From Escherichia coli O157:H7 (GTDB lineage: Bacteria; Pseudomonadota; Gammaproteobacteria; Enterobacterales; Enterobacteriaceae): DNA of 64,000 nt. Below are positions 279 to 60,647 of the stretch, piece by piece. How positions within the stretch are numbered: the stretch's first letter is position 1; each line of letters opens with the position of its first letter. The translations under genes were made by a program, and so were the position numbers. Where the stretch lies: NCBI GenBank assembly GCA_013403045.1, contig GCA_013403045.1_3037.1, one strand, 5' to 3'. The notes under the pieces are model-generated. The model did no database searches, had not been told where the DNA came from, and saw only the letters and a program-made list of their open reading frames with translations.

Positions 279-2336
279 ATGATGGAACTCATTACAGAAT
301 TATTTGACGAAGATACTACTCTTCCGATTACAAACTTAAATCCAAAGAAGAAAATACCACAAATTTTTTCAGTTCATGTTGATGATGCAATTGAACAACC
401 AGGCTTTCGTTTATGTACCTATACATCTGGAGGTGATACTAATCGTGATTTAAAGATGGGCGATAAAATGATGCATATTGTTCCTTTTACATTAACTGCT
501 AAAGGTTCAATTGCTAAATTAAAAGGTCTTGGTCCAAGCCCGATTAATTATATCAATTCAGTTTTTACTGTTGCAATGCAAACAATGCGTCAATATAAAA
601 TTGATGCCTGCATGCTTCGTATTCTTAAGTCTAAAACCGCAGGTCAAGCTCGACAAATTCAACTTATTGCTGATAGACTCATCCGCAGTCGTTCAGGTGG
701 CAGATACGTCCTTCTTAAGGAACTCTGGGATTACGATAAAAAGTATGCATATATTCTTATACATCGCAAAAATGTATCACTAGAAGACATTCCAGGAGTT
801 CCGGAAATTAGTACCGAGCTCTTTACTAAAGTTGAATCGAAGGTCGGTGATGTTTATATCAATAAAGATACTGGAGCTCAAGTAACTAAAAATGAGGCAA
901 TTGCAGCATCTATTGCGCAAGAAAATGATAAACGTTCTGACCAAGCTGTAATCGTTAAAGTTAAAATTTCACGTAGAGCAATTGCGCAAAGTCAATCATT
1001 GGAATCTTCTAGATTTGAAACACCGATGTTTCAAAAATTTGAGGCTTCAGCAGCAGAATTAAATAAACCCGCTGATGCGCCTTTAATTTCCGATGCTAAC
1101 GAATTAACTGTTATTTCTACTTCAGGATTTGCATTAGAGAATGCTCTTAATAGTGTTACAGCTGGAATGGCATTCAGAGAAGCTTCTATAATTCCTGAAG
1201 ATAAAGAATCTGATGTTAATACAGAAATAAAAAATAAAGCTTTAGAAAGATTACGAAAAGAATCTATTACTTCAATAAAAACTTTAGAAACTATTGCTTC
1301 TATAGTCGATGATACTTTAGAAAAATATAAAGGTGCTTGGTTAGAAAGAAATATTAACAAGCATTCGCATTTAAATCAAGACGCTGCGAATGAGTTAGTG
1401 CAAAATTCTTGGAATGCAATAAAAACAAAGATTATTCGAAGAGAATTACGTGGATATGCTCTTACTGTTGGATGGTCATTACATTCTATAGTCGAAAATA
1501 AAGATTCATCTAAATACACACCAGCGCAAAAACGCGGAATTCGTGAATATGTAGGTTCAGGATATGTAGACATGAATAATGCTCTTTTGGGATTATATAA
1601 TCCAGATGAGCGTACAAGTATTTTAACAGCACCTGAAATAGAACAAGCCATCGATAATTTAGATTCAGCCTTTAAAAATGGTGATCGATTGCCAAAAGGT
1701 ATTACTTTATATCGTTCACAGCGAATGTTACCTTCAATATATGAAGCATTGGTAAAAAATCGAGTTTTTTATTTTAGAAATTTTGTATCAACATCATTAT
1801 ATCCAAACATTTTTGGTACTTGGATGACTGATTCAGCTGTTGGTGTTTTACCAGATGAAAAGCGTCTAAACATTTCTATCGATAAAAATGATGAAGGGCT
1901 TGTTAATTCTAGCGATAATTTAGTCGGAATTGGATGGGTTATTACTGGGGCTGATAAAGTCAATGTTGTTTTACCCGGTGGAAGTTTAGCGCCTTCAAAT
2001 GAAATGGAAGTTATTTTGCCACGTGGATTAATGGTCAAAGTTAATAAAATAACTGATGCATCTTACAATGATGGAACAGTTAAAACTAACAACAAGCTTA
2101 TTCAAGCTGAAGTTATGACCACGGAAGAGCTCACCGAATCGGTAATCTATGACGGAGACCATTTAATGGAAACTGGTGAATTGGTTGCAATGACAGGTGA
2201 TATTGAAGTAGAAGACAGAGTTGACTTTGCATCATTTGTTTCATCAAACGTTAAACAGAAAGTAGAATCATCTCTTGGAATTATTGCGTCTTGCATAGAT
2301 ATTACAAACATGCCTTACAAGTTCGTTCAAGGATAA
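279..2336 (+). CDS. alt: Alt ADP-ribosyltransferase (packaged, injected), copy 1
   Basis: 685-aa ORF (T4 Alt about 682 aa); N-terminus MELITELFDEDTTLPITNL; C-terminal R-S-E motifs (TLYRSQ, FVSTSLYP, SNEMEV); true start may be the second ATG at 282. Confidence 0.9.
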   Translation: MMELITELFDEDTTLPITNLNPKKKIPQIFSVHVDDAIEQPGFRLCTYTSGGDTNRDLKMGDKMMHIVPFTLTAKGSIAKLKGLGPSPINYINSVFTVAMQTMRQYKIDACMLRILKSKTAGQARQIQLIADRLIRSRSGGRYVLLKELWDYDKKYAYILIHRKNVSLEDIPGVPEISTELFTKVESKVGDVYINKDTGAQVTKNEAIAASIAQENDKRSDQAVIVKVKISRRAIAQSQSLESSRFETPMFQKFEASAAELNKPADAPLISDANELTVISTSGFALENALNSVTAGMAFREASIIPEDKESDVNTEIKNKALERLRKESITSIKTLETIASIVDDTLEKYKGAWLERNINKHSHLNQDAANELVQNSWNAIKTKIIRRELRGYALTVGWSLHSIVENKDSSKYTPAQKRGIREYVGSGYVDMNNALLGLYNPDERTSILTAPEIEQAIDNLDSAFKNGDRLPKGITLYRSQRMLPSIYEALVKNRVFYFRNFVSTSLYPNIFGTWMTDSAVGVLPDEKRLNISIDKNDEGLVNSSDNLVGIGWVITGADKVNVVLPGGSLAPSNEMEVILPRGLMVKVNKITDASYNDGTVKTNNKLIQAEVMTTEELTESVIYDGDHLMETGELVAMTGDIEVEDRVDFASFVSSNVKQKVESSLGIIASCIDITNMPYKFVQG

Positions 2337-2339
2337 ATC

Positions 2340-4397
2340 ATGGAACTTATTACAGAATTATTTGACGGCGCTTCGGCGCCGGTTGTTAACTTAAATCCTA
2401 AGCATAAAATACCACAAATTTTTGCTATCCAAGCCGGCGAAGAAAGCGTGCTTCCTGGATTTAGATTTTGTACATACACCTCTGGTGGTGATACAAATAA
2501 AAATGTTAAGCCAGGCGATAAAATGATGCATATCGTAATGATAGGTGTCAACGAGAAATTATCGCTGGTTAAGCTTAGAAACTTGGGTGGAAATCCAATT
2601 GGCGTCATTAATGCCGTTTTTGATACTGCTCTTCAAACAATGAAACAGTATAAAATTGACGCATGCCTATTCCGCGTACTAAAAAGTAAAACAAATGGCG
2701 CTGCTCGTCAAATGCAAGTTATTGCTGACCGTTTAGTACGTACTAAAGGAGCAGGTCGATATGTTCTTTTAAAGGAAATCTGGGATTATGATAAAAAGTA
2801 TGCATATATTATGGTTTACCGTAAAAATGCCAATTTAGAAGACATTCCAGGTGTACCTCCTATTTCAACTGAGTTATTCACAAAAGTTGAATCAAAGGTT
2901 GGTGATGTTTATGTAGACGTTAAAACAGGTAATGCTGTTCCTAAAGCTGTCGCTGTTGCTGCTTCTATTGCTTTAGAAAATGATAAGCGCACGGACCAAG
3001 CTGTTATTCAGAAAACTAAAATTAGTCGTCGATTAGCAGCACAAGCTCAATATTCTACTGTTGATGCTTCACTTCAGGGTGATAGCTTCGCTGCTAAGAA
3101 ATATCAAGAGTTTGAATCTAAAGTTCCGGTATATAAAGCAGAAGGACCAATGAACTCTGGCGTTATTCAGATTGGTTCAAACTTCAGCAAAGGAGCTATC
3201 GGTGGTATGAGGAGTGCTTCTCGTTTTAAATCTAGCGATTATGAACTAGAAAGTTTCCGAAATCATATTGCATTAGCCCATGCGCGTTTACGCGATCCAT
3301 CTATCAAGTTGCAGAGCGATACATCATATCAAGGTTCCCAGGAATATTTAAAGAATAAAGACTTCTTTAATTACAAAACTGATAAAATTTTAAGCGATCT
3401 TGCTGATATTAATATTTCTAATAGTTTTGATGTTATTAAGAAAATTATCAATGATTTAGTTAAAGGTTCTAAAGCTACACCAGATGAAAAGACAGCTATT
3501 ATTCAATTTGTAATGAATGGAATTTATAAATTAATTGATGAATCCGCTGCTCAGGCGTATGAATATGCAAGCACTGAAGTAACTCCAAAAGGATTGACTC
3601 AGGCTGAGTCTGATGTAATTGAAGATTATTGCGCAGATTCGTATGTTGAAATGAACTCATTCCTTTTAGGTAAACCTGATTCTACACGTGAAGAATATAT
3701 GGAACGAGCTATTAAACATATTGAGACGCTGGATTCTGCATTCGCTAAAGGTTCAGTTCTTCCTCCAGGAACTACACTTTACCGTGGACAAGAAGTTACT
3801 TTTAAAACTTTGCGTCATAACATTGAAAATAAAATGTTCTATTTCAAGAACTTCGTATCGACATCACTTAAACCAAATATCTTTGGTGAGTATGGTAAAA
3901 ATTATATGGCCTTAGATAATTCCGGAGCAGTATTTTCTGGTGAAGGAGAAGGTTCCGTTGATGCAGAAGATTTGATGCATATGGGTAGTCATTCTACATA
4001 TGCTAATGAAGATGCTGAAACTAGCGTGGGTATGGTAATTAAAGGAGCTGAACGAGTTAAAGTTATCGTTCCAGGTCATTTATCAGGATTTCCATCAGAA
4101 GCTGAAGTTATTCTACCACGTGGAATTTTACTGAAGATTAATAAAGTAAGTACTTACTTTATGAAAGAAACTGCTTATAACAAGTATCTAATCGAAGGTA
4201 CAATCGTTCCTCCTTCTGAACAATTAGAAGAATCAGTATATGATGGCGACCATCTAATGGAAACTGGTGAAGTTCGTCCAATGGCTGGATTTAATCAATT
4301 CCTTGTAGAAGAATCAAAAGAAGAGGAAAACGAAGTTTCTCAAATCTTAGCTTCTTTGGTTAACATCAACGGAATGTCTAAAAAGTTCAAAATGTAG
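2340..4397 (+). CDS. Alt-like ADP-ribosyltransferase paralog, copy 2
   Basis: 685-aa ORF 3 nt downstream of copy 1; same N-terminus (MELITELFDG), same R-S-E motifs (TLYRGQ, FVSTSLKP, SEAEV), divergent central region. Confidence 0.85.
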   Translation: MELITELFDGASAPVVNLNPKHKIPQIFAIQAGEESVLPGFRFCTYTSGGDTNKNVKPGDKMMHIVMIGVNEKLSLVKLRNLGGNPIGVINAVFDTALQTMKQYKIDACLFRVLKSKTNGAARQMQVIADRLVRTKGAGRYVLLKEIWDYDKKYAYIMVYRKNANLEDIPGVPPISTELFTKVESKVGDVYVDVKTGNAVPKAVAVAASIALENDKRTDQAVIQKTKISRRLAAQAQYSTVDASLQGDSFAAKKYQEFESKVPVYKAEGPMNSGVIQIGSNFSKGAIGGMRSASRFKSSDYELESFRNHIALAHARLRDPSIKLQSDTSYQGSQEYLKNKDFFNYKTDKILSDLADINISNSFDVIKKIINDLVKGSKATPDEKTAIIQFVMNGIYKLIDESAAQAYEYASTEVTPKGLTQAESDVIEDYCADSYVEMNSFLLGKPDSTREEYMERAIKHIETLDSAFAKGSVLPPGTTLYRGQEVTFKTLRHNIENKMFYFKNFVSTSLKPNIFGEYGKNYMALDNSGAVFSGEGEGSVDAEDLMHMGSHSTYANEDAETSVGMVIKGAERVKVIVPGHLSGFPSEAEVILPRGILLKINKVSTYFMKETAYNKYLIEGTIVPPSEQLEESVYDGDHLMETGEVRPMAGFNQFLVEESKEEENEVSQILASLVNINGMSKKFKM

Positions 4398-4426
4398 TTT
4401 ACAAGTCCCTCGTGTTGTGTTATAGT
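4397..4426 (+). promoter_or_regulatory. T4 early-type promoter (GTTTAC N18 TATAGT)
   Basis: -35 GTTTAC at 4397-4402, -10 TATAGT at 4421-4426, upstream of the ORF at 4458. Confidence 0.5.
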
Positions 4427-4457
4427 AGTCTTACTGACATAACATGAGGAACACAAA

Positions 4458-4748
4458 ATGAAATCTTCTTTGCGCTTTTTAGGTCAAGAACTCGTCGTTG
4501 AAGGCGTTATTCCCGCTGATAACGCTTTCAATGAAGCAGTTTACGGTGAATTTATCAAAATTTTTGGAACAGATAAAAAGTTCGGAATTTTTCCTTCTGA
4601 AAATTTTTCAAAGCCAGAACAGACTGAAAGTATTTTCCAAGGTGTAGTAACAGGTAAATTTGAGTCAGAAGCTCCGGTAAAAATTGAGGTTTATATTGAA
4701 GAAACCTCTGTTGCTTCAGTTTCTGCTTTTATTTCATTCCGTAAATAA
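4458..4748 (+). CDS. hypothetical protein
   Basis: 96-aa ORF with GAGGA Shine-Dalgarno, own early promoter, followed by bidirectional terminator. Confidence 0.5.
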   Translation: MKSSLRFLGQELVVEGVIPADNAFNEAVYGEFIKIFGTDKKFGIFPSENFSKPEQTESIFQGVVTGKFESEAPVKIEVYIEETSVASVSAFISFRK

Positions 4749-4752
4749 AAAT

Positions 4753-4774
4753 ATGGGGACCGAAAGGTCCCCAT
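4753..4774. terminator. bidirectional hairpin terminator between convergent genes
   Basis: atggggacc-gaaa-ggtccccat perfect hairpin between the ORF ending at 4748 and gene 54 ending at 4777. Confidence 0.6.
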
Positions 4775-4776
4775 TG

Positions 4777-5742
4777 TTATATTGCTCCTAATATTTTACT
4801 TTGCGAATTGACAATTCCTGTCATAGTATTAATATTTGAAATGCTTCCTGCAGTTCCCCCTAATCTACTAAGTCGTGAAAGCGAATTAGATAGTCCAGTA
4901 ACACCTCCACTATTTCCGAGAACGCTTTGAATACCATTTATAGTAGCAGATTCAAGCCATTCAAGGGCAGCTTGTCTATCAACTGCTCCAGCCTGCATGA
5001 CTCTATAAGCGAAAGTAACATCAAATGTAGTTATTTGGTTATCTCCATCATATGATAACTCAGGAGCACTCACAGATATTGGAATACAGCCAGTGAACAT
5101 CACCGCAGTATGTGGTAATCCATTGCGAGAATGAAGATTGACCTGAATATCTGCCTCGACATCTTGCGGTAAAGCACGCAATCCAGTTACTGGGTCTTGA
5201 ACAGCGTTAACCCAGTCTTGCATTGCACGATAGTTACAAGCTTCTGAATCCATTCTAAATGAAATAACCAAAGGGTCTAATTCTCTTCCAGTTATACGAA
5301 TATTAGGAGAATTATAGTTCCAGTCAGTTTCATAGGATAATCTATTCTCTGGCATTTTTACAGAATATATCATCAATCCAGATGAGTTATATGCCATGTT
5401 AAAGAAGTCAATTAAATATGTACCAACTGTAAATGAGCCTAATAAACTTTGAACTGTACGTTGACTCATGGCACCAATAAGATATTTACTAACCCCTGAT
5501 TTTCTTATCAGTTTTTGTGTGCCAGCGGTAATTAGCGTAGTAATTCCCTGATTAATATCACCTTGAGTTAATCCCAACCAATCTGAATTTAGACCCAAGT
5601 TATTATAAGCAAAGTTACTAATTGAGCTTATTAACGATGAGCTTTTAGTTGATGGAGTTGTAGCAAAAACACAGCTGAACATATTATTACGTTGGAAGTC
5701 TGCGTTTATTGCTTGATTATTAAATTCCTCTAAAGAATACAT
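4777..5742 (-). CDS. 54: baseplate tail-tube initiator gp54
   Basis: 321 aa (T4 gp54 about 320 aa); N-terminus MYSLEEFNNQAINADFQ; synteny. Confidence 0.9.
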   Translation of the reverse strand: MYSLEEFNNQAINADFQRNNMFSCVFATTPSTKSSSLISSISNFAYNNLGLNSDWLGLTQGDINQGITTLITAGTQKLIRKSGVSKYLIGAMSQRTVQSLLGSFTVGTYLIDFFNMAYNSSGLMIYSVKMPENRLSYETDWNYNSPNIRITGRELDPLVISFRMDSEACNYRAMQDWVNAVQDPVTGLRALPQDVEADIQVNLHSRNGLPHTAVMFTGCIPISVSAPELSYDGDNQITTFDVTFAYRVMQAGAVDRQAALEWLESATINGIQSVLGNSGGVTGLSNSLSRLSRLGGTAGSISNINTMTGIVNSQSKILGAI

Positions 5743-58359: not shown

Positions 58360-58389
58360 GTTTACTTTTCCTCTTGACTGTGGTATAAT
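58360..58389 (+). promoter_or_regulatory. early promoter (GTTTAC N18 TATAAT, extended -10 TGTGG) for regB
   Basis: -35 at 58360-58365, -10 at 58384-58389. Confidence 0.6.
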
Positions 58390-58885: not shown

Positions 58886-59431
58886 ATGAGAAAAGCACTA
58901 CTCGCTGGTCTATTGGCCATTTCAATGATGGCACATAGCTCCGAGCATACTTTCAGTAATGTCCAACTCGATAACATGCGTTACGCGTATCAATTCGGGG
59001 AACAATTTTCTAAGGATGGAAAATATAAAACACACAAAAATATCCACAAGAGCGGATTAGGTCATATAATGGCTGCTATTTTATGGCAAGAAAGCTCTGG
59101 CGGAGTTAATTTAAAATCTAAACCAAAGCATCACGCCTACGGAATGTTCCAAAATTATTTGCCTACTATGCGAGCAAGAGTTAAGGAACTTGGTTATAAT
59201 ATGACCGATGCTGAAATAAAAAGAATGTTGAATAAACGATCCAATTCAGCTTCCTGGGCGTACATTGAACTTTCTTATTGGTTAAATATACATAAGGGCG
59301 ATATAAGAAAAGCAATATCCTCTTATAATTCGGGATGGAATGTTAAAGCAGGTTCTAAATATGCTTCTGAAGTCCTAGAAAAGGCTAATTACCTTAAAAA
59401 TAATAAACTTTTGGAAATAGTAAATGACTAA
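58886..59431 (+). CDS. secreted lytic-transglycosylase-like protein (vs.1 position)
   Basis: 181 aa; N-terminal signal peptide; catalytic-type E-S motif (LWQESSGG). Confidence 0.6.
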   Translation: MRKALLAGLLAISMMAHSSEHTFSNVQLDNMRYAYQFGEQFSKDGKYKTHKNIHKSGLGHIMAAILWQESSGGVNLKSKPKHHAYGMFQNYLPTMRARVKELGYNMTDAEIKRMLNKRSNSASWAYIELSYWLNIHKGDIRKAISSYNSGWNVKAGSKYASEVLEKANYLKNNKLLEIVND

Positions 59432-59771
59432 AATTTTGGTTTTATGTATAGGATTAATTTCATTTTCTGCTTCTGCGTCAGCAGATACATCATATACTGA
59501 AATTAGAGAATATGTAAACCGCACTGCGGCAGATTATTGTGGGAAAAATAAAGCATGCCAAGCTGAATTTGCACAGAAATTAATATATGCATATAAAGAC
59601 GGAGAAAGAGATAAATCAAGTAGATACAAAAACGATACATTATTAAAACGATATGCTAAAAAGTGGAATACCTTAGAATGTTCAGTTGCGGAGGAGAAAG
59701 ATAAAGCCGCTTGTCATTCAATGGTTGACCGTTTGGTAGATTCTTATAATCGAGGATTGAGTACTAGATGA
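59424..59771 (+). CDS. vs: Vs-like protein (valyl-tRNA synthetase modifier position), secreted
   Basis: 115 aa as in T4 Vs; signal peptide; assignment by size and synteny only. Confidence 0.5.
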   Translation: MTKILVLCIGLISFSASASADTSYTEIREYVNRTAADYCGKNKACQAEFAQKLIYAYKDGERDKSSRYKNDTLLKRYAKKWNTLECSVAEEKDKAACHSMVDRLVDSYNRGLSTR

Positions 59772-60235
59772 TTGTAAAATATATCAAGGGCGATATTGTC
59801 GCCCTTTTCGCTGAAGGTAAAAATATTGCGCATGGATGTAATTGTTTTCACACGATGAAAGCTGGAGTCGCAGGTCAATTAACTAAAGCTTTCCCTAAAA
59901 TTTTGGAAGCTGATAAATTACAGACTGAATGGGGTGATGTAACTAAACTTGGTTCTTATTCAGTCTATGAAAAATACTTTAGGACTCATAAAGCTTACTG
60001 CTTTAATCTTTATACTCAATTTCAACCAGGGCCAAATTTTGAGTATTCCGCTTTAATGAATTGTATGTTAGAATTAAATGAGTTTGGTAAAAATAAACTG
60101 ATTAAACCTACAATCTATATGCCTAGGATTGGTGCAGGCATAGGTAAAGGGAACTGGGATATTATTGAGGGGATTTTAGATACATATTCTTCTAAATTAG
60201 AAATTGTGATTGTTGATTGGGAACCGTTATTATGA
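59768..60235 (+). CDS. macro-domain-like protein (putative ADP-ribose binding or hydrolase)
   Basis: 155 aa; GDIVALF...NIAHGCNCF..MKAGVAGQL and PRIGAGIGKG resemble the two glycine-rich loops of macro domains. Confidence 0.5.
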   Translation: MIVKYIKGDIVALFAEGKNIAHGCNCFHTMKAGVAGQLTKAFPKILEADKLQTEWGDVTKLGSYSVYEKYFRTHKAYCFNLYTQFQPGPNFEYSALMNCMLELNEFGKNKLIKPTIYMPRIGAGIGKGNWDIIEGILDTYSSKLEIVIVDWEPLL

Positions 60236-60444
60236 ATATACATTATCCACATCCATATGACCCAAAGAATAAGGCAGTAATTATTCGTCAATGGGAACGC
60301 ATTTGTCGTACTAAATGTCCAATTAATAGTCCACATGATGTAGATAAAGACTACATTGGAACATTCGTTGAATATACCTTTATTGATAAGAAAGGTCGTA
60401 AACAGCATGTAGAAGAATACTGCTTAAAGGTTACATGGTTATGA
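60232..60444 (+). CDS. hypothetical small protein
   Basis: 70 aa from ATG in ATGA overlap. Confidence 0.45.
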   Translation: MNIHYPHPYDPKNKAVIIRQWERICRTKCPINSPHDVDKDYIGTFVEYTFIDKKGRKQHVEEYCLKVTWL

Positions 60445-60647
60445 GCCAAACTAGTATTCTTAAAAATGCCCACTGTGAAAAGTGTAAATGGCCGGTTGTT
60501 TTTGCTTTATGCAACGATGAAATGGCTTGTGATTTCGATTATTGGTGCTATTGTTCTAATAAAGGATGCATCAATCATAAAGGTGAAGGATTTTATTCGG
60601 GATTTTATCCTTATCCTGATTTCGTTAAAGAAGGTAAACCAAAATGA
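60435..60647 (+). CDS. Cys-rich small protein (possible zinc ribbon)
   Basis: 70 aa, 7 Cys including CxxC. Confidence 0.5.
   Translation: MVMSQTSILKNAHCEKCKWPVVFALCNDEMACDFDYWCYCSNKGCINHKGEGFYSGFYPYPDFVKEGKPK

Follow-up and report, generated by a model that had tools for sequence, protein, structure and literature searches.

The tk.4 gene of phage AR1 encodes a stand-alone macrodomain with glutamine at the DarG/TARG1 lysine position and a probable role in countering DarTG2

The closest described counterpart of the gene considered here is tk.4 of phage T4, whose RefSeq record reads 'phosphatase; contains A1pp phosphatase motif'. Since its orthologue is also labelled 'macro domain protein' or 'Poa1p-like' in many phage records, the assignment of this fold is old. 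T4 lacking both adfA and adfN is still resistant to DarTG2, which led to the prediction of a further anti-DarTG2 factor (Johannesman et al. 2025), and tk.4 has now filled this gap: When a T4 transposon library was screened on a DarTG2 host by HIDEN-SEQ, tk.4 was the single significant hit, insertions in the gene were depleted specifically with DarTG2 present, and, in this preprint work on the T4 allele, a clean T4 Δtk.4 mutant was sensitised to DarTG2 (bioRxiv 10.1101/2025.11.20.689424, November 2025). Because T4 needs tk.4 for DarTG2 resistance, the gene was renamed adfM (anti-DarT factor, macrodomain); the authors of the preprint describe it as similar to the DarG macrodomain of M. tuberculosis and infer that its product acts by hydrolysis (bioRxiv 10.1101/2025.11.20.689424).

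The DarG macrodomain itself (T. aquaticus, PDB 5M31 and 5M3E; M. tuberculosis, 5M3I) has DarT2-modified DNA as its target and carries a catalytic lysine (K80 in T. aquaticus). SCO6735 of Streptomyces coelicolor (PDB 5E3B), a stand-alone bacterial protein encoded on the chromosome, is a thymidine-ADP-ribose DNA hydrolase that reverses the DarT modification: With a glutamine (Gln85) at the catalytic position, it efficiently cleaves thymidine-linked ADP-ribose, the Q85A form is inactive, an activated water molecule has been proposed for its catalysis, and an extra mobile loop has been described as a DNA clamp (PMC9411070). In phage PhiKZ, gp104, likewise called AdfM, is a stand-alone macrodomain that counters DarTG2; in vitro, the protein clears a TNTC oligonucleotide of the ADP-ribose added by DarT2, and the N23A substitution lowers this activity (Cell Rep 2026, PMC13309987). 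The paper on CmdTAC, which concerns ADP-ribosylation of mRNA, has nothing on phage macrodomains.

The window that we analyzed is a 64,000-nt stretch of a contig deposited under Escherichia coli O157:H7 (assembly GCA_013403045.1). The window belongs to Escherichia phage AR1, a T4-like Tequatrovirus whose isolation host was E. coli O157:H7. Over 3.2 kb surrounding the ORF of interest, the sequence is a 100% match to the AR1 genome (AP011113 / NC_027983), with the window reversed relative to that record, and the ORF (59768..60235, plus strand), which runs from ATG to TGA and specifies a stand-alone macrodomain of 155 residues and 17.5 kDa, is AR1 tk.4 at 100% (58597-58130 in the coordinates of the AR1 record). 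All 155/155 residues of the protein align with T4 Tk.4 (NP_049723), and 152 of the 155 are identical (98%); for T6 Tk.4 the figure is 154 of 155. A preliminary description made from the letters alone had placed a 155-residue ORF at exactly these positions and had singled out the segments NIAHGCNCF (residues 19-27), MKAGVAGQL (residues 30-38), and PRIGAGIGKGNW (residues 119-130), all of which are present.

Genes around tk.4 are co-oriented and follow the order regB, vs.1, vs, tk.4, tk.3, more small ORFs, and then tk, of which the central vs–tk.4–tk.3 portion is common to T4, T6, and AR1. The sequence, read directly, has an ATGA overlap at either end of tk.4: At 59768..59771 (plus strand) the stop codon of vs, which ends at 59771, overlaps the tk.4 start, and at 60232..60235 (plus strand) the tk.4 stop overlaps the tk.3 start, whose ATG begins at 60232. 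As such, tk.4 is a single gene within a tightly packed, co-oriented run, and the overlap with vs shows how closely the genes are packed and makes translational coupling possible. The product of tk.3 has 70 residues and belongs to Pfam family DUF7202, and T4 tk.3 also specifies 70 residues and overlaps tk.4; indeed, T4 Tk.4 agrees with its AR1 counterpart in length, in its place between vs and tk.3, and in the ATGA overlaps. Among the other neighbours, vs.1 contains the SLT family, vs has no Pfam family, and a nearby ORF matches Phage_zn_bind; this ORF and Pfam check of the neighbours found no darT gene adjoining tk.4. Judged from sequence identity and gene order, the tk.4 gene of the window is the orthologue of T4 tk.4/adfM.

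Upstream of regB lies a candidate sigma-70 early promoter (58361..58389, plus strand; TTTACT-17-TATAAT with an extended TG), the best match to the consensus between 57 and 62 kb, and it could drive the run regB–vs.1–vs–tk.4–tk.3…tk. Because the count of promoter matches within 57-62 kb is not above shuffled expectation, we regard this candidate as context only, and the timing that we assign to tk.4 expression rests on T4 gene order. A 9-bp hairpin in the 5' end of tk.4 (59786-59806) was considered and set aside, the region being no more stable than shuffled sequences (z = -1.35).

The preliminary description had proposed a macro domain, and profile searches, structure prediction, and fold comparison each bear this out. 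The Pfam Macro family (PF01661) matches residues 22-132 over profile positions 2-113 of 118 with 24.8 bits (E = 2.2e-5), above its gathering score of 22, and PHROG 335, a family named 'phosphatase', matches Tk.4 at E = 2e-64. Single-sequence searches of PDB entries with phmmer returned BT1257 (2e-8), yeast Poa1p (3.2e-5), human TARG1/OARD1 (2e-3), SCO6735 (0.0039), and DarG macrodomains (9e-3); with a profile of 116 homologues, solved macrodomains were matched at E-values of 1e-19 to 1e-12, among them BT1257 (1.8e-19), TARG1 (2.9e-16), SCO6735 (3.2e-15), Poa1p (4.3e-15), and M. tuberculosis DarG (3.2e-14). An AlphaFold2 model built on the 116-homologue alignment has a pLDDT of 96.1 and a pTM of 0.91, and its strands and helices alternate. 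When this model was compared with the PDB by Foldseek, the top matches were TARG1 (E = 3.5e-10), Poa1p (TMq 0.78-0.81), BT1257, and the DarG macrodomain (TMq 0.79 for 5m3e, the structure with ADP-ribose), all at a probability of 1.00 and all ranking ahead of viral and archaeal macrodomains, and TM values on TARG1, Poa1p, and DarG were 0.7-0.8. There were 128 PDB matches at E<=1e-3, and the best 50 of these 128 are natural macrodomains together with a few designed hydrolases. On the evidence of profile, predicted structure, and fold search, Tk.4 is a macro domain.

The two glycine-rich segments, which the preliminary description had likened to the phosphate-binding loops of macro domains, show the highest conservation in the family alignment; they are far beyond chance as motifs, and they align with the loops of TARG1 and DarG. 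Loop 1 of the ADP-ribose pocket, as delimited by column conservation and by alignment with the DarG and TARG1 loops, spans residues 22-38 (HGCNCFHTMKAGVAGQL; 59831..59881, plus strand) and pairs with 'VNTVGVMGKG' of DarG and 'CRMGAGIA' of TARG1. Its N25 is the equivalent of N23 in PhiKZ AdfM, the conserved asparagine of that protein, and it also contains the derived K31-A32 allele to which we return below. Loop 2, the diphosphate-binding loop, comprises residues 119-130 (60122..60157, plus strand) on the basis of conservation and alignment with solved macrodomains, and is aligned to 'PRIGCGLDRLQW' in TARG1, 'PRIGCGLAGGKW' in BT1257, and 'PPLGAGNGGLPW' in DarG. Across the 116-homologue alignment, G33, A35, P119, I121, and G124 are invariant, as are Y82 and Q84 outside the two loops, and H22, G23, C24, N25, C26, M30, G122, G128, and W130 are conserved in at least 90% of sequences (N25 in 115 of the 116, H22 in 111). 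By this alignment, both glycine-rich segments are ADP-ribose-binding loops, and the pocket that they line is the predicted binding site.

Between the loops lies the motif N-L-Y-T-Q (residues 80-84; 60005..60019, plus strand), which was placed by HMM and hhalign alignment and by conservation, and it is here that Tk.4 departs from DarG and TARG1. In the HMM alignment, the 'nlYTQ' of the family (Q84) pairs with 'yLITK' of TARG1 (K84), and when the Tk.4 family was compared by hhalign with four DarG-type macrodomains (probability 98.8%, E = 4.5e-17), NLYTQ84 paired with NFPTK, whose lysine is the catalytic K80 of T. aquaticus DarG and is replaced by Gln84 in Tk.4. The second member of the TARG1 K84/D125 dyad is also missing: The D125 position is occupied by G126 in AR1 Tk.4 and by alanine in most of the family. 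Given an invariant Gln84 and Gly/Ala at the D125 position, Tk.4 cannot work through a lysine as DarG and TARG1 do. SCO6735 likewise has glutamine for lysine, dispenses with the TARG1 aspartate, and stands alone, and catalysis by Tk.4 is probably of the SCO6735 type (i.e., with a glutamine that positions the distal ribose and an activated water) and not of the DarG/TARG1 lysine mode. We class Tk.4 as a glutamine-type enzyme by transitivity, Q84 corresponding to the TARG1/DarG lysine and that lysine to Gln85 of SCO6735, and not by direct superposition; the two proteins are in any case distant (profile E = 3.2e-15; Foldseek E = 6.3e-6; TM 0.69; about 19% identity), and one is bacterial and chromosomal whereas the other is encoded by a phage.

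The best matches in sequence and fold, i.e., TARG1/OARD1 (4J5R/4J5S), Poa1p (6LFQ-6LFU), and BT1257 of Bacteroides (2FG1/2AFC), share with Tk.4 a loop 1 of the H-x-C-N/I type and a P-R-I-G-x-G loop 2. They differ at position 84, where BT1257 has glutamine, as in Tk.4, but Poa1p, whose substrate is a small molecule, has serine. The DarG macrodomain has the same fold and loop architecture (TM ~0.75-0.79) and the same target as we propose for Tk.4, but the C-terminal domain with which DarG binds DarT is missing from Tk.4, no darT adjoins the gene, and Gln84 stands in place of K80. Profiles for DarG match accordingly over the macro part alone: NCBIfam NF048014 gives 25.4 bits, where its cut-off is 250, and covers only positions 2-146 of 338, and the PADLOC DarG model matches at E = 8.7e-8 over positions 2-145 of 329. 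An assignment of Tk.4 as a DarG antitoxin was rejected on these grounds: 25.4 as opposed to 250 bits, no DarT-binding domain, no lysine, and no darT neighbour.

A comparison of Tk.4 with the other phage protein called AdfM leads to a related distinction. PhiKZ gp104 matches M. tuberculosis DarG at E = 9.4e-25 and has the catalytic lysine, in an FPTK motif, whereas BLASTP aligns only 23 residues of gp104 with Tk.4, all in loop 1 (E = 0.018). Since gp104 is of the DarG type and so little of it can be aligned, the two proteins called AdfM are analogous in function but come from separate lineages of macrodomains, and one name has thus been given in separate papers to two non-orthologous lineages, the one glutamine-type and the other lysine-type.

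Taken with the genetics of T4, these features make it likely that Tk.4 is the AdfM macrodomain of AR1, a member of the TARG1/DarG/SCO6735 class that strips DarT2-added ADP-ribose from thymidines. According to this model, DarT2 released upon infection of a DarTG2 host would ADP-ribosylate thymidines in single-stranded phage DNA and so block replication. The two glycine-rich loops of Tk.4 would bind the ADP-ribose, the essential glutamine would position the distal ribose and water would be activated, as in SCO6735, and hydrolysis of the bond between ribose and thymine would restore normal DNA, such that Tk.4 would act as an orphan mimic of the antitoxin. The model has its direct basis in the identity of the gene, the fold of its product, the conserved motifs, and the glutamine substitution; hydrolytic activity and early expression we infer, and the requirement in the face of DarTG2, for which the preprint supplies genetics of the T4 orthologue, would extend to AR1 by analogy. 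The preliminary description had suggested, naming DarTG, that a macro domain could remove ADP-ribose placed by host defenses, and this suggestion has gained support from the DarTG2 sensitivity of T4 Δtk.4, in which the 98%-identical orthologue is lost (bioRxiv 10.1101/2025.11.20.689424).

Several observations count against too literal a version of the model. The absence of the DarG catalytic lysine argues against a residue-for-residue analogy with DarG, and in sequence Tk.4 is no closer to DarG than it is to Poa1p or to BT1257, whose function is unassigned. In addition, Lys31 of AR1 lies inside the ADP-ribose-binding loop, which weighs against a simple transfer from T4, where this residue is Gly31.

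AR1 and T4 Tk.4 differ at three residues, of which two lie inside loop 1 (G31K and S32A) and the third is E108K, and the available genetics are for the T4 allele only. Position 31 is glycine in 101 of the 116 homologues, T4 included, and lysine, alanine, asparagine, aspartate, phenylalanine, or glutamate in the others; as the position varies, Gly31 is not strictly required. Lysine occurs there in two distant lineages as well (P0048 and P0100). Because glycine is found in all more distant relatives, we consider Lys31 to be the derived state. The K31-A32 allele is common to T6 and AR1, and almost identical copies of the 60-mer around K31 occur in no fewer than 47 phage records (among them RB51, RB68, wV7, and an O157 typing phage), a number that is a lower bound and no frequency, since a 60-nt megablast with a 28-nt word requirement reaches near-identical records only. 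The 2025 Nat Commun paper makes no mention of T6.

At the nucleotide level, 11 of the 18 differences between AR1 and T4 tk.4 fall within codons 21-39, and codon 31 differs at all three bases. This dense patch of loop-1 differences from T4 is common to AR1 and T6, and it looks like a small recombination patch. Counted by codon, there are 12 synonymous and 3 non-synonymous changes, and outside the patch nearly all are synonymous, a pattern consistent with a functional tk.4 gene. By extension from the T4 orthologue, the K31-A32 allele would be active against DarT2. A more ambitious reading holds that Tk.4 represents a separate, glutamine-dependent lineage of phage macrodomains that is convergent with PhiKZ AdfM, and that K31-A32 is an arms-race adaptation and not a neutral change. 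We consider this unlikely; if true, the allele would shift the specificity for substrate or toxin, for example toward other DarT variants or toward ADP-ribosylated RNA or protein.

Relatives of Tk.4 are widespread: They were detected by tblastn in 2,817 of 50,697 phage records, the hosts of these phages include Escherichia, Klebsiella, Salmonella, Pseudomonas, Vibrio, Acinetobacter, and Aeromonas, and a scan of IMG/VR gave only 11 loci. In T4-like genomes, tk.4 usually adjoins vs. One homologue from a 'Bacilli bacterium' MAG (P0070) was considered as a bacterial, darT-linked case and rejected, its contig being that of a T4-like phage.

Of the competing accounts, the one that fares best, unlikely as we find it, is that Tk.4 mainly binds and inhibits DarT2 or shields its product, in the manner of AdfA and AdfB, rather than hydrolyzing ADP-ribosyl-thymidine. 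Both AdfA and AdfB have been described as direct DarT inhibitors, and catalytically dead forms of SCO6735 (Q85A), DarG (K80A), and TARG1 (K84A) inhibit DarT in vitro, SCO6735 most strongly (PMC9411070); moreover, the hydrolysis proposed for Tk.4 in the preprint was itself inferred (bioRxiv 10.1101/2025.11.20.689424). But Tk.4 is devoid of the C-terminal domain through which DarG binds DarT, and an ADP-ribose pocket and an SCO6735-type glutamine that are invariant over very diverse phages fit an enzyme directed at a substrate better than a binder that has to follow variable toxins.

If, alternatively, Tk.4 were a small-molecule enzyme like Poa1p (i.e., an ADP-ribose-1''-phosphate phosphatase or O-acetyl-ADP-ribose deacetylase) that clears NAD-derived metabolites during infection, this would agree with the 'A1pp phosphatase motif' of the T4 annotation and with the 'phosphatase' name of PHROG 335. 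Poa1p is among the best matches in both sequence and fold, and H22 of Tk.4 aligns in phmmer with H23 of Poa1p, in 'IHSCNC', the residue mutated (H23A) in structure 6lfs. Yet no phenotype other than DarTG2 sensitivity is known for the T4 orthologue, the residue at position 84 is serine in Poa1p and glutamine in Tk.4, and side activities on small ADP-ribose esters are so common among macrodomains that they would not define a biological role. To our knowledge, the tRNA repair route of T4 Pnk and Rnl1 yields no Appr-1''-p, which also speaks against a Poa1p-like role. This account ranks below inhibition of DarT2, and we think it improbable.

We attach very little weight to the view, also raised in the preliminary description, that Tk.4 is a counterweight to the phage's own enzymes, erasing the ADP-ribosylation that Alt, ModA, and ModB place on host proteins or RNAylated targets and thereby timing or limiting these marks. 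The premise is sound in that AR1 does encode ADP-ribosyltransferases (modA, modB, and two copies of alt, none of which lies within the window), and both SCO6735 and TARG1 have protein substrates as well (PMC9411070). The depletion of tk.4 insertions, in contrast, was specific to the presence of DarTG2 (bioRxiv 10.1101/2025.11.20.689424). In the AR1 genome, tk.4 is unlinked to alt or mod. The residue that Alt, ModA, and ModB modify is arginine, and it is enzymes of the ARH family that cleave arginine-ADP-ribose. We know of no macrodomain of the TARG1/DarG class that cleaves arginine-ADP-ribose, so this linkage lies outside the known activity of the class and the counterweight proposal loses ground.

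Tad1 and Tad2, the sponges known for gcADPR, have folds unrelated to macrodomains. The least credible of these accounts builds on the binding of ADP-ribose-derived signals, which the preliminary description had also allowed for: Tk.4 would soak up immune signals of this kind, for instance Thoeris gcADPR, as a binder or sponge with no catalytic role. Macrodomains are ADP-ribose-binding modules, but we found no evidence supporting a role in binding such signals, N25 and Q84, the residues relevant to catalysis, are conserved, and the HIDEN-SEQ phenotype is specific for DarTG2 (bioRxiv 10.1101/2025.11.20.689424).

The identification of tk.4 as a macro-domain gene is correct, and it is already known; the T4 annotation already included the macro identity, and the role against DarTG2 was published in 2025, so that it adds no new biology. 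Two details may have been less appreciated so far, namely the Gln84 that stands in place of the DarG/TARG1 lysine, as in SCO6735, and the derived G31K/S32A allele in loop 1 of AR1 and T6. Both the glutamine-type active site and the K31 loop allele are refinements and not discoveries; the K31 allele of T6 and AR1 is a natural variant of an active-site loop that can be compared with the T4 allele. In the wider biology of T-even phages, tk.4 forms part of a layered anti-DarTG toolkit of AdfA, AdfN, and AdfM, and since AR1 possesses 61.2 (the homologue of T4 adfA), 30.3 (adfN), and tk.4 (adfM), it is probably armed against both types of DarTG.

Of the 18 nucleotide differences between the AR1 and T4 copies of the macrodomain gene tk.4 (adfM), 11 are located within 57 nt (window 59828-59884, codons 21-39), a segment that covers the ADP-ribose-binding loop. 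The replacement of T4 GGT TCA by AR1 AAA GCT, which produces the substitutions G31K and S32A, belongs to this cluster. The AR1 allele of the loop is common to T6, and all more distant relatives have Gly31. The cluster has the look of a short stretch exchanged by recombination at the active-site loop.

The name AdfM has been applied in separate papers to PhiKZ gp104 and to T4 Tk.4 (PMC13309987; bioRxiv 10.1101/2025.11.20.689424), which are non-orthologous phage macrodomains: PhiKZ gp104 is of the DarG type, with its catalytic Lys within F-P-T-K, whereas T4 Tk.4 is nearer to Poa1p, BT1257 and SCO6735 and has an invariant Gln in N-L-Y-T-Q. One Tk.4 homologue (contig L005, 1927-2397) was deposited as 'MAG: macro domain-containing protein [Bacilli bacterium]'. 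The same contig also encodes T4 Rnl1, a Dda-like helicase, PNK and dCMP deaminase; it probably belongs to a T4-like phage that binning assigned to a bacterial MAG.

Within tk.4, codons 7-13 contain a 9-bp GC-rich hairpin, AAGGGCGAU-AUU-GUCGCCCUU (window 59786-59806, +), which a terminator scan picked up on the minus strand. The stability of the surrounding 86 nt was not raised relative to shuffled sequences (z -1.35).

Upstream, vs.1 (window 58886-59431, +), annotated in T4 and AR1 only as 'hypothetical protein', encodes a 181-aa protein whose N-terminus is hydrophobic and resembles a signal peptide. Vs.1 scores 25.1 bits with the SLT lytic transglycosylase domain (PF01464), above the cut-off of 21.3 bits. 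Between tk.4 and tk, AR1 has four small ORFs vs. three in T4 (tk.3, tk.2, tk.1). Among the AR1 four, tk.3 matches DUF7202, another matches DUF7438, the ORF at window 60435-60647 (+) encodes a 70-aa Cys-rich protein with a match to Phage_zn_bind (PF23895, E 2.6e-29), and one matched no Pfam family.

Elsewhere in the AR1 genome, outside the window, there is a tandem pair of full-length alt genes (AR1 record 120030-124148, i.e., 1031-5149 of segment L003), each 2058 nt and encoding an Alt-like ADP-ribosyltransferase. Because AR1 also has 30.3 and 61.2, the orthologues of adfN and adfA, the full known anti-DarT set is present in this phage.
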